Below are positions 1-7,299 of a stretch of 7,299 nucleotides of DNA, in pieces. Under the pieces are notes generated by a model. The model did not search any database and was not told the origin of the DNA. It was given only the letters and a program-made list of their open reading frames with translations. How positions within the stretch are numbered: position 1 is the stretch's first letter; each line of letters begins with the position of its first letter. Source of the stretch: a virus (taxonomy: Duplodnaviria > Heunggongvirae > Uroviricota > Caudoviricetes); the IMG/VR virus record IMGVR_UViG_2639763115_000004, positions 1-7,299 of that record. One strand, 5' to 3'. Made by a program: the position numbers and the translations under genes.

Positions 1-63
1 ATCATACTTCAGCACATTAGGAAAATAGAACTGCTGCGCACCATACGCATCATAAACAGCCAT
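1..63 (-). CDS. 5' end (21 codons, [21 protein letters not shown]) of the gene downstream of the O-like gene, in the position of a P/DnaC-like helicase loader; truncated by the window edge
   Basis: ATG at 63-61 (minus) preceded by a weak AAGG about 7 nt upstream; open to the window edge. Position only, no recognisable similarity. Confidence 0.25.
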
Positions 64-124
64 AGAATGGCCTTGCACGGTAACGAATTTGGCAATCTGT
101 CCGTTATATACAGGGTATCCTGTC

Positions 125-946
125 TCATGCAATCCCCCTGTCTGCAAACTTCCCTTCCCGTACTCCCGTTAACGAATCTTCCCTCAGCAGGTAATCAAAA
201 TCAGCTGTCCAGCCAGTGTCGTTGTCTCCGAAGTAAAACGGCTTGGCCTGATGCACAAACGCCCTGACATACGCTCTGAAACCGTCCACGTTTGGCGTTT
301 TCAGTTGCGGGATGATTTTCTTCAGGCGGCGTTTGCGTTTCTCATTGACCGCAACAGCGTGTGGCAGTCTGTCACCGACTTCGGTGTTGTAGGCGTTCAG
401 GAAGGATTCGTAGTCGATTCGTTCTGCCTTGCGACGTTCAGGTTTAACCTGCCCATCGCCGACCCCGTTAGGGGGTAAGGGGGTATTTGTATTTATTGTC
501 TTTTGTATATTGTCTTTTGTGTTTAGCTGACTTGGCTTATACCCATTAGCCGACTTGGCTAATGTTTTATTAGCTGTTTTAGCTAATGTTAAGCTGTCCT
601 GGCTAATCCACTGCGAAACCACCTTGTTCACTCCGATTTTCACGCCATCAGCAATGAGGAATTTACGCTCAATAAGCTGGCGCTTGGCAGCGCAAACATG
701 AGTGTGATGAATACCTGTCATGGCTGCTATCTGCGTGTTTGTGAGTCGATCCATCGGCTTATTGAATCCGTATGTCTTGCGCATGATAGCGAGCATCACC
801 TTCAGCTGCCGGACGGTTAAATCAGCCATCAGCAGACTGTCGGTAATCTCGTTAGCAACGCGCATGAAACCATCTTCGGTATCTGCCACGCGATGCTCCA
901 CGACCTCCAGTTGAGGCCTGTAATCAGCTAACTTAACGACGCCCAT
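125..946 (-). CDS. Replication initiator protein, lambda O-like N-terminal domain with a different C-terminal domain
   Basis: 273-aa ORF; AGGAG 7 nt upstream of the ATG at 946; N-terminal segment [29 protein letters not shown] aligns with recalled lambda O (ADLTKRQFKVLLAILRKTYGWNKPMDRIT); repetitive linker [18 protein letters not shown] encoded by DNA iterons. Confidence 0.85.
481..610. repeat. Putative replication origin iterons inside the O-like gene
   Basis: Tandem direct repeats: attgtcttttgt at 495-506 and 509-520; agctgacttggct at 525-537 with near-copy agccgacttggct at 548-560; ggctaat/agctaatg copies at 557-609. AT-rich and located at the O interdomain linker as in lambda ori. Confidence 0.5.
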
Positions 947-1094
947 GTTTCACTCCTGCTTTGGCTAGTCTGTAAACACCAACAAGGCGCTCTGCGAACG
1001 CCCTGTTATTTGCTGCGGCTACCACTAATCCCTCAGGTGAATCAGGGTGTCGAATCTCTTCTTTTTCCTGGTATTTCTTACGACGTTTTGTCAT
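933..1094 (-). CDS. Small basic hypothetical protein (53 aa, [53 protein letters not shown]) between cII and O
   Basis: Not in the ORF track (under 60 aa); found by manual translation. AGGAG 6 nt upstream of the ATG at 1094; stop overlaps the O-like start by 14 nt in a different frame. Confidence 0.4.
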   Translation of the reverse strand: MTKRRKKYQEKEEIRHPDSPEGLVVAAANNRAFAERLVGVYRLAKAGVKHGRR

Positions 1095-1128
1095 AATTAC
1101 TCCTGTGGATTGATCCAGTCTTTCTACA

Positions 1129-1526: not shown

Positions 1527-2879
<1,353 letters not shown>

Positions 2880-3071: not shown

Positions 3072-3243
3072 AGCATTCAAAGCAGAAGGCTTTGGGGTGT
3101 GGTGAAGGGTTCATGGATGGGAATATGTCGCACGTAAAGCGGCGAGGCCTGCGGAACTATTGCCGAATTGAAGTCGGCCGAAGCAGGTCGAAATGGGTCT
3201 CCCACCTACCACACCACCAAAGCTAACTGACAGGAGAATCCAG

Positions 3244-3831
3244 ATGGATGCACAAACACGCCGCCGCGAACGTCGCGCAGAGAAACAGGCTCAATGGAAA
3301 GCAGCAAATCCCCTGTTGGTTGGGGTAAGCGCAAAACCAGTTACCGTGCTTGCGCTTCTTGATGAACTGGAAGCTCAAAGCAAACGCATTGCAGAGCTGG
3401 AGAAAAAAGCTGCACCAGATTCGTTTGGCATCATCGGTGAAAATATTCGAACACAGGATAATCGAATAACGTCAGACCCTATGTTTTGTGTGTATCAAAA
3501 GCGCGAAATCGTTGTTGATGCTGATTATGACTATGACCGGATTGTCTGGGTTGATGAAGATGGTAATGAAGCCAATAAACGCCAAAGTCGTCGTCTCGAA
3601 CTACTTCACGAAAACTTTCGAGAGCCACCAGAAAAATGGCGGCGCGTTGCTGTGAAAGATATTGATGAATTCGTTACCTGCTGTTTCACCGAACAGGGTT
3701 GTAAATACTACCTAGCAGCCAATGGTCACAATCTTCGCTTGCCATTTATATATGTAAAAAGCGGTTTCAGGAACGCTGAATATATCGGCATAAGAAACTG
3801 GCTTGCTGGCATTCGCATCAAAGGAGAGTGA
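3244..3831 (+). CDS. N-like protein: lambda N arginine-rich motif (residues 1-33) fused to an unrelated C-terminal region of about 160 aa
   Basis: AGGAG at 3232-3236 then ATG at 3244; MDAQTRRRERRAEKQAQWKAANPLLVGVSAKPV matches recalled lambda N, then diverges completely (TVLALLDELEAQSKRIAELEKK...). The ORF-track start at 3193 lacks an RBS and is rejected. Confidence 0.65.
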   Translation: MDAQTRRRERRAEKQAQWKAANPLLVGVSAKPVTVLALLDELEAQSKRIAELEKKAAPDSFGIIGENIRTQDNRITSDPMFCVYQKREIVVDADYDYDRIVWVDEDGNEANKRQSRRLELLHENFREPPEKWRRVAVKDIDEFVTCCFTEQGCKYYLAANGHNLRLPFIYVKSGFRNAEYIGIRNWLAGIRIKGE

Positions 3832-5327: not shown

Positions 5328-5528
5328 ATGCAACACGAACTACAGCCTGATTCACTGGTTGATTTGAAATTCATCATGGCCGATACTGGCTTCGGTAAAA
5401 CCTTCATCTACGACCGGATTAAGTCCGGCGACCTGCCAAAAGCCAAAGTTATCCACGGACGAGCAAGATGGTTATATCGTGACCATTGTGAATTCAAAAA
5501 TAAGCTCTTAAGCCGCGCTAATGGGTAA
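5328..5528 (+). CDS. torI: AlpA-family excisionase / recombination directionality factor (TorI-like, 66 aa)
   Basis: SLVDLKFIMADTGFGKTFIYDRIKSGDLPKAKVIHGRARWLY fits the AlpA/Xis winged-helix pattern; length and position next to an argW attR core fit KplE1 TorI as I recall it. GGAGA 8 nt upstream. Confidence 0.7.
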   Translation: MQHELQPDSLVDLKFIMADTGFGKTFIYDRIKSGDLPKAKVIHGRARWLYRDHCEFKNKLLSRANG

Positions 5529-5544
5529 AATAGCGGGTAAAATA
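5523..5544 (+). repeat. Tandem direct repeat gggtaaaata x2 (5523-5532, 5535-5544), candidate RDF or integrase arm-type binding sites
   Basis: Two exact 10-bp copies at a 12-bp period spanning the torI-like stop codon, about 60 bp from the att core. Confidence 0.35.
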
Positions 5545-5602
5545 TTTCTCACATCTAAAAAATATCATTCCAATCAATCCCCTGCCGCGCCAAGTAGATG
5601 TC

Positions 5603-5617
5603 TGCAGGGGACACCAT
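5603..5617 (+). other. Putative attR core: terminal 15 nt of tRNA-Arg(CCU) argW (ctgcaggggacacca)
   Basis: Exact match to the recalled argW 3' end including CCA; no intact tRNA upstream, so this is a duplicated att core rather than a gene. Confidence 0.6.
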
Positions 5618-6000
5618 TTATCCTTCCAACGAAATCCACCTTCCCCGCGTAAAAGTTGGGTTTGGCAGCACACTTGCCCTAAATCTACTCATTTTCCCTG
5701 CAACAGGTTGAAATCTCAGCACTGTGCGGCGATGACTAAACAGCCCCGGGCCTGGCAATGTATTCATCACACAGAATCCTGATCGCGAAATCTGGCTTGA
5801 CTCGATACTTCACTCCGCAATGCATTCCTTGATGGATTAGCAGGCCCGTGATACACGGGACAGGTCGCTGAATTACGACAATTTCCTGGAAATCAGCGAA
5901 CCGCGTATCCTGAGTACATTTGAGCGACTGTTCCAGAACATGAATGAGGCGTTTGGATTAGGCGATTATTAGCCGCGCTAAGCATTTTGGTATTATTATT

Positions 6001-6040
6001 TTCCGGTTGAGGGATATAGAGCTATCGACAACAACCGGAA
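6001..6040. repeat. 9-bp inverted repeat ttccggttg / caaccggaa with a 22-nt spacer, 12 bp downstream of the cscB stop
   Basis: Perfect reverse-complement arms at 6001-6009 and 6032-6040; no U-tract on the cscB transcript side, so not a canonical terminator. Confidence 0.3.
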
Positions 6041-6051
6041 AGAGTTTACGT

Positions 6052-7299
6052 CTATATTGCAGAAGGTACAGGCGTTTCCATCACCATTTGCTCACGCTTT
6101 TTACTCAGGAAGAAAATGCCAAATAACAACATCAGGCAGACAATACCCGAAATTACGAAGAAAACCGTCTGGTAACCTGCATGGTCAAAAAGTATTCCAG
6201 TCGGCGTTGAAAGCAACACAATCCCCAACGAACTAGCAATTTGAAAACCAATCAGAAAGATCGTCGACGACAGGCGCTTATCAAAGTTTGCCACGCTGTA
6301 TTTGAAGACGGAAATGACACACAGTGGAACCTCAATGGCATGTAACAGCTTCACTAATGAAATAATCCAGGGATTAACGAACAGTGCGCAGGAAAGAATA
6401 CGCAACGCCATAATCACAACACCGATAAGTAATGCATTTTTTGGCCCTACCCGGTTAACAAAGAAAGGAATAATGGCCATGCACAGCGCTTCGAGTACAA
6501 CCTGGAATGAGTTGAGATAACCATACAGGCGCGTTCCTACATCGTGTGATTCGAATAAACCTGCATAAAAAACAGGAAAGAGCTGTTGATCAAAAATGTT
6601 ATAGAAAGACCACGTCCCCACAATAAATATGACGAAAATCCAGAAGTTTCGATCCTTGAAAACTGCAATAAAATCCTCTTTTTTTACCCCTCCCGCATCT
6701 GCCGCTACGCACTGCTGATCCTGATATTTAAAACGCATGTTGATCATCATAAATACAGCGCCAAATAGCGAAACCAACCAGAAGTTGATATGGGGACTGA
6801 TACTGAAAAATATGCCAGCAAAGAACGCGCCAATCGCATAGCCAAAAGATCCCCAGGCGCGCGCTGTTCCATATTCGAAATGAAAATTTCGTGCCATTTT
6901 TTCGGTGAAGCTATCAAGCAGACCGCAGCCCGCCAGATACCCCAAGCCAAAAAAGAGCGCCCCCAAAATTAGACCTACAGAAAAATTGCTTTGCAGTAAC
7001 GGTTCATAAACGTAAATCATAAACGGTCCGGTCAAGACCAGGATGAAACTCATACACCAGATAAGCGGTTTCTTCAGACCGAGTTTATCCTGGACGATGC
7101 CGTAGACCATCATAAATAGAATACTGGTAAACTGGTTGACCGAATAAAGTGTACCTAATTCCGTCCCAGTCAACCCTAGATGTCCTTTCAGCCAAATAGC
7201 GTATAACGACCACCACAGCGACCAGGAAATAAAAAAGAGAAATGAGTAACTGGATGCAAAACGATAGTACACATTTCTGAATGGTATATTCAGTGCCAT
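6052..7299 (-). CDS. cscB: Sucrose:H+ symporter, LacY-family MFS oligosaccharide permease (CscB-like, 415 aa)
   Basis: Complete 415-aa ORF with its start codon at the window edge; multi-TM hydrophobic protein whose N-terminus MALNIPFRNVYYRFASSYSFLFFISWSLWW and length match CscB as I recall it; clear LacY-family similarity. Confidence 0.8.
   Translation of the reverse strand: MALNIPFRNVYYRFASSYSFLFFISWSLWWSLYAIWLKGHLGLTGTELGTLYSVNQFTSILFMMVYGIVQDKLGLKKPLIWCMSFILVLTGPFMIYVYEPLLQSNFSVGLILGALFFGLGYLAGCGLLDSFTEKMARNFHFEYGTARAWGSFGYAIGAFFAGIFFSISPHINFWLVSLFGAVFMMINMRFKYQDQQCVAADAGGVKKEDFIAVFKDRNFWIFVIFIVGTWSFYNIFDQQLFPVFYAGLFESHDVGTRLYGYLNSFQVVLEALCMAIIPFFVNRVGPKNALLIGVVIMALRILSCALFVNPWIISLVKLLHAIEVPLCVISVFKYSVANFDKRLSSTIFLIGFQIASSLGIVLLSTPTGILFDHAGYQTVFFVISGIVCLMLLFGIFFLSKKREQMVMETPVPSAI

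Follow-up and report, generated by a model that had tools for sequence, protein, structure and literature searches.

Lambdoid replication origins lie within the initiator gene O, and both this arrangement and the presence in P22 of four repeats of its own are already part of the literature (PMC7466680, PMC8022706). In phage lambda, gene O carries four iterons in its middle part, to which the O protein binds to form the O-some; the AT-rich tract is required for unwinding, and the two nearest iterons suffice in vitro (PMC7466680). These sites are annotated in the lambda record as four 'ori iterons' within O, at 39034, 39054, 39078 and 39101. Gene 18 of P22 carries four repeats of ~20 bp that are unlike those of lambda, and the partner in this phage, gp12, is described as a DnaB-type helicase (PMC8022706). 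Binding of O to the origin has also been shown biochemically for the Stx phages 933W and P27 (PMC7466680), in which iterons and an AT-rich tract are likewise situated mid-O. The literature searched, the HK97 genome paper aside, describes the iterons of lambda, Stx phages, P22 and phage L, and contains no report on HK97-type iterons.

The window, i.e., the whole 7299-bp stretch of viral DNA analyzed here, contains an O-like gene of the HK97 gp54 type with an array of comparable design. We consider it highly probable that window positions 431-607 represent a lambda-type (theta, bidirectional) origin of an HK97/ST104-type lambdoid prophage of E. coli, located in the inter-domain part of its own O gene. 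With the helicase gene deleted, this copy is most likely a non-firing relic.

Organization of the replication region

In the window, the immunity and replication region of a lambdoid prophage adjoins cscB, the sucrose permease gene (Table 1). The O-like protein matches the Pfam family PF04492 (Phage_rep_O) over residues 19-113 with an E-value of 5.8e-33 and a score of 113.7 bits (curated threshold, 28.7 bits), and the match covers profile positions 1-95 of 95. The gene shows ~99% nucleotide identity to its counterparts in HK97, mEp213, HK446, ST104, Nil2 and many Stx2 phages, and the protein is 99% identical to HK97 gp54, which the HK97 record already calls similar to P22 gp18. The C-terminal domain, presumed to be the helicase-contacting part of O, has ~60% amino acid identity to the C-terminus of P22 gp18 and none to that of lambda. 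Since it is unrelated to the lambda domain, the expected partner is a phage DnaB-like helicase, not the lambda P loader. A DnaB-like helicase gene, and not a lambda-P loader gene, comes next after O in HK97, mEp213, P22 and others, that is, in relatives with a P22 gp18-type C-terminal domain. A search of the O sequence against PDB chains gave no match at E-values up to 1, and a single-sequence structure model (mean pLDDT 38.9) was uninformative on the N-terminal winged-helix fold and on linker disorder.

Table 1. Features of the window, with coordinates in base pairs from its first position
Feature	Coordinates	Strand	Description or basis	Position in O gene
Tailspike gene fragment (internal)	1-122	minus	97.5% identity to annotated tailspike genes	
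DnaB-like helicase gene remnant	116-128	minus	4 codons (MRQD); HK97 gp55 begins MRQDIEAS	
O-like replication initiator gene, HK97 gp54 type	125-946	minus	273 aa; ORF and Pfam Phage_rep_O	
C-terminal domain coding region, P22 gp18 type	128-466	minus	amino acid identity to P22 gp18	
Imperfect palindrome (inverted repeat I2)	431-459		29 bp; beyond the AT-rich tract	
GC-rich box CCCCCTTACCCCCTAACGGGG	463-483		borders the AT-rich region	
AT-rich, strand-asymmetric region	484-524		GC 0.30, AT skew -0.62	
Iteron 4, O-sense ATAAGCCAAGTCAGCTAAA	522-540		partial dyad; adjoins the AT-rich region	nt 407, codon phase 2
Iteron 3, O-sense ATTAGCCAAGTCGGCTAAT	545-563		perfect 7+7 dyad; reference copy	nt 384, codon phase 3
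Iteron 2, O-sense ATTAGCTAAAACAGCTAAT	569-587		full 7+7 dyad	nt 360, codon phase 3
Iteron 1, O-sense ATTAGCCAGGACAGCTTAA	589-607		partial dyad	nt 340, codon phase 1
N-terminal origin-binding domain coding region	608-946	minus	Pfam match extent	aa 1-113
53-codon ORF	933-1094	minus		
CII gene	1129-1410	minus	Pfam Phage_CII	
Cro-like HTH gene	1527-1742	minus		
LexA-type repressor gene	1846-2478	plus		
cscB (sucrose permease)	6052-7299	minus	LacY_symp match	

Upstream of O, window positions 1087-1119 (minus strand) are a perfect match to a 33-bp block that lambdoid phages are reported to conserve at the oop promoter and 5' end (PMC3349717), and at 1131-1172, on the plus strand, a strong terminator-like hairpin overlaps the 3' end of cII. 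Judging from these sequence elements, the 1087-1172 region probably encodes an OOP-like antisense RNA; an Rfam scan of the whole window gave 0 matches. Directly downstream of the repressor gene and overlapping it, a 158-aa ORF at 2403-2879 (plus strand) is without a Pfam match; its central part, judged by eye, resembles a signal peptide, and the ORF may be a lysogen-expressed moron. The prophage remnant ends beside the csc sucrose locus (5328-7299). A 66-aa ORF at 5328-5528 occupies the position where a related region (L011) annotates torI, an excisionase-like gene, and no integrase gene was found in the window between this ORF and cscB.

A four-iteron array within the initiator gene

A repeat search detected a unit of 16-22 nt occurring four times, at 525-540, 548-563, 572-587 and 592-607, with start-to-start distances of 23, 24 and 20 bp. 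Extension of these repeats gave the four 19-bp units listed in Table 1, which have the consensus ATTAGCC-N5-GGCTAAT with internal dyad symmetry and, read in the O sense, a spacing of 20/24/23 bp. Complete 7+7 inverted repeats are found in units 2 and 3, whereas units 1 and 4 are partial only; as single strands, iteron 2 folds with 7 pairs (z -3.1) and iteron 3 with a z of -6.0. With at most one mismatch allowed, the pattern TTAGC-N7-GCTAA has four matches in the entire window, all within 523-606, and dinucleotide shuffles yielded a mean of 0.26 matches, with 0 of 200 reaching four. The array sits inside the initiator gene: the Phage_rep_O domain ends at residue 113 and is followed at codon 114 by the start of iteron 1. 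GC content is 0.30-0.38 across ~461-620, compared with ~0.5 on both flanks. The sequence-only reading had described several families of short repeats in an AT-rich segment, and the formal analysis bears this out, with the four-unit main family, two more families described below and the low GC content of the segment.

The same reading had likened the locus to lambda ori within O, and the position, the four dyad 19-mers, the spacing, the AT-rich tract and the P22 annotation all agree with it. In lambda, too, the initiator gene contains the array just past the Phage_rep_O domain, in the form of four dyad-symmetric iterons of ~19 bp; these start at gene nt 349, 369, 393 and 416, as against 340, 360, 384 and 407 in the window, and the spacing is 20/24/23 in both. 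P22 shares the architecture and the spacing, as well as the ~60% identical C-terminal domain and the downstream DnaB-like helicase gene (gene 12), and at the homologous site of gene 18 its record (NC_002371) has an annotated rep_origin described as 'similar to phage lambda'. The iteron sequences themselves differ: the half-sites are TTAGCC/GGCTAA in the window and TCCCTC/GAGGGA in lambda, while the P22 iterons read TTTACC-N5-GGTAAA. For the N-terminal domain, identity is only about 43% to lambda (over the aligned part) and likewise only about 43% to P22. The Stx phages 933W and P27 have six iterons of the lambda type, in contrast to the four of different sequence found here. All four iterons of HK97 are identical to those of the window, and HK97, ST104, mEp213, HK446, Nil2 and the Stx2 phages 1717 and 2851 show 98-99.5% nucleotide identity over the origin; for the HK97-type group, identity over window positions 440-640 is 99.0%.

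Because the repeat region falls between the two O domains, the repeats could instead be a by-product of a repetitive, low-complexity O linker (LAKTAN/LAKSAN) with no role as DNA sites. The sequence-only reading had itself described the linker as repetitive, and this holds in part: the peptide quoted there corresponds to O residues 119-136, and iterons 2 and 3, which are 24 bp (8 codons) apart, encode TLAKTAN and TLAKSAN, but the peptide repeat derives from these two units only. Since neither 20 nor 23 is divisible by three, translation passes through the four units in three codon phases, and the peptides encoded by units 1-4 are ISQDSL, (T)LAKTAN, (T)LAKSAN and (Y)KPSQLN. Iterons 1 and 4 thus have the same half-sites although their codon phases differ from that of units 2 and 3 and the peptides they encode are unrelated; moreover, dyad symmetry is meaningless for a peptide. 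The window iteron class was compared in 21 distinct arrays from phage and prophage contigs. Little or no variation occurs there at positions 2-6 (TTAGC), positions 14 and 15 (GC) and 18 (A) rank with the best conserved, and the centre is variable. Half-sites that are kept across three codon phases while the centre varies indicate that the constraint acts on the DNA and not on the peptide. The 20/24/23 geometry, not built on multiples of three, is also kept across iteron classes that encode different peptides, and the iteron class co-varies with the DNA-binding domain (see below). It is therefore very improbable that the DNA repeats are a side effect of a repetitive linker, and we rejected the peptide-repeat explanation on the codon-phase evidence.

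Other readings of the palindromic units are that they terminate or attenuate transcription, or that they bind a regulator different from O. A terminator scan flagged 544-564 (plus strand), where the iteron 3 hairpin is followed by a T-run. This match is antisense to O, however, and amounts to a palindrome next to an AT-rich spacer; the scan, which gave 5 sites against 2.2 expected, is weakly informative, and such readings leave unexplained the four phased copies and their co-variation with the O N-terminal domain. We give them hardly any credence. We rejected the 544-564 match, which is most likely a by-product of the palindrome in iteron 3.

The AT-rich region and its flanking elements

By nearest-neighbour energies, no 41-bp stretch of the O gene is less stable than 484-524, which ranks third for instability in the window as a whole (z 3.1). 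Among the eight stretches listed as least stable, the other six are located outside O. This AT-rich region is the presumed DNA unwinding site. Its motif ACACAAAAGAcA...CAAAAGA is common to lambda, P22 and all other relatives examined, and directly after iteron 4 the sequence reads ACACAAAAGACAATATACAAAAGACAATAAATACAAATA, with ACACAAAAGACACTATTACAAAAGAAAAAAGAAAAG at the equivalent place in lambda. In both the window and lambda, the AT tract has an A-rich strand, opens with ACACAAAAGACA and is followed by an inverted repeat: lambda has a GTCAGAG...CTCTGAC dyad at the place of the 29-bp palindrome of the window, whose single-strand fold has an energy of -7.6 kcal/mol (z -3.4). Two shorter repeat families accompany the iterons. 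ATTGTCTTTTGT occurs twice in the AT-rich part, at 492-507 and 506-521 (direct repeat D3, with a 14-bp period), and Tandem Repeats Finder reported two copies of AGGGGGTA at 470-485. Most relatives whose C-terminal region is not of the lambda type have the GC-rich box, whereas lambda, SEN34 and 4A7, all of which share the C-terminal region of lambda, lack it. The extent originally proposed for the iteron cluster, 481-610, covers the AT-rich part and the iterons (522-607) but is too short on the left, where the origin runs to ~431.

The break in homology between the window and P22 coincides with the junction of iteron 4 and the AT-rich region. A separate observation concerns a 55-nt block at window positions 470-524, comprising the AT-rich tract and CCCCCTTACCCCCTAA, which is 100% identical to P22 (L002, ~1520-1580) while its flanks are only ~40-60% identical. 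Either this block is under very strong constraint at the DNA level, or it is a recombination joint at which the N- and C-terminal halves of O are shuffled.

Iteron classes across O genes

To place the array among its relatives, 80 O-gene loci from viral contigs were collected together with the O genes of nine reference phages and that of the window itself. For 54 distinct origin regions, all 1331 spacing triplets (17-27 bp) were scored for four mutually similar 19-mers. The triplet 20/24/23 ranked first in 47 of these 54 regions, those of the window, lambda and P22 among them. This geometry is shared by at least four iteron classes: TTAGCC..GGCTAA (window, HK97), TTTACC..GGTAAA (P22), TCCCTC..GAGGGA (lambda) and TGTCAC..GTGACA (L078, L090); the ACACAAAAGA motif follows the iterons in all classes. 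Some loci stand apart. L078 and L090 carry the distinct class TGTCAC-N7-GTGACA, L085 and L086 have 24/24/24 spacing with five matches to the window-type half-site pattern, GZ7 (L007) and 4A7 (L009) have 19/24/23 spacing, and phiES15 (L005) has extra iterons and an extended linker.

Natural domain swaps within this collection separate the two halves of O. Six loci (L051, L054, L056, L059, L061 and L062) encode a C-terminal domain 96-99% identical to that of the window, joined to a P22-like N-terminal domain (85-91% identity to P22), and their iterons are of the P22 type. Klebsiella phage RCIP0114 and Cronobacter phage phiES15 show the reciprocal combination: their C-termini are unrelated to that of the window (6-7%), their N-terminal domains are 49-56% identical to it, and their iterons are of the window type. 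The iteron class therefore tracks the N-terminal Phage_rep_O domain and not the C-terminal one. This co-variation is what would be expected if the N-terminal domain reads the iterons, and it lends support to such a role.

The half-sites, being unlike those of both lambda and P22, place the window in a separate O/ori specificity group. A specificity distinct from that of lambda had been suggested from the non-lambda appearance of the repeats; comparison with lambda and other lambdoid iterons, in which the window class is unlike lambda and P22 and identical to HK97, together with the dependence of the class on the N-terminal domain, supports this putative distinction at the level of sequence. 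The group is already represented by HK97, ST104, mEp213, HK446, Nil2 and many Stx2 phages.

By analogy with oriλ, we infer O binding and origin firing at an intact origin of this kind to proceed as follows. Dimers of the O N-terminal domain would bind the four 19-bp iterons (Table 1), and the resulting nucleoprotein complex, the 'O-some' of lambda, would strain and open the AT-rich region. The P22 gp18-type C-terminal domain of O would then recruit the phage-encoded DnaB-like helicase.

A decayed prophage copy

In the window, this helicase is missing. Homology to HK97-type phages stops at window position 116, and only the start of the helicase gene remains, overlapping the O stop codon (ATGA). 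HK97 and the other phages with the same module carry the DnaB-like helicase gene directly downstream of O; here it is deleted, and no cognate helicase or loader gene follows O. The remnant is joined out of frame to a tailspike gene fragment (from ~residue 71), and the fused frame stops after 39 codons. The deletion junction, at ~114-122, is a short patch of near-identity. The interval between the helicase and tailspike genes is wholly missing; by a P22-like gene order, it would have held the late-regulation, lysis and most virion genes. A second deletion is evident in a 212-aa fusion ORF at 3193-3831 (plus strand), in which the first ~50 codons of an N-like antiterminator gene, with the lambda N arginine-rich N36 peptide (aa 19-50), run into Ead/Ea22-like sequence. 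This deletion, with its junction inside N at about 3340, took away the remaining part of N together with the genes past it; in L011, N is a separate 108-aa gene.

With the helicase gene deleted, the origin looks intact but is probably non-firing unless a helicase is supplied in trans. The loss touches function in situ, not the identity of the origin. The window junctions recur in none of the complete E. coli genomes of the collection, the best of which covers 66% of the window in 6 pieces, so that a misassembly is formally possible.

The state of the copy also bears on a different reading, in which the O-ori-oop cassette of this helicase-less remnant serves as a single-copy origin decoy against superinfecting phages with HK97-type replication, titrating or misdirecting their initiator. 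Ectopic oriλ copies block the initiation of lambda replication (PMC4488673), and plasmids with oop and iterons silence rep-lambda phages (PMC3349717). Deletions have removed flanking genes in the window, whereas O, the iterons, the oop promoter block, the terminator-like hairpin at the expected position of the oop terminator and the repressor gene look intact. The published effects, however, were obtained with multicopy plasmids, whereas the window would provide a single chromosomal copy, and the intactness may simply reflect a recent deletion, given that O is ~99% identical to that of functional phages. We regard a decoy function as very unlikely; if true, a cassette retained by selection would amount to superinfection exclusion at the level of replication.

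Significance

The preferred reading remains that of a lambda-type origin in a relic prophage. Judged by its sequence, this origin is ordinary, being already known in kind and in sequence from HK97 and its relatives. The stretch deserves the label of replication origin of the HK97-type O module, and its significance beyond annotation is small. The module is common, since at least 80% of window positions 1-1100 is present in 394 of the 5426 complete E. coli genomes. As a decayed prophage copy, the one described here should not be counted as a replication-competent element. For the family as a whole, the survey illustrates a known principle, in which the iterons change with the O N-terminal domain, whereas at least four classes have the geometry and the AT-rich motif in common.
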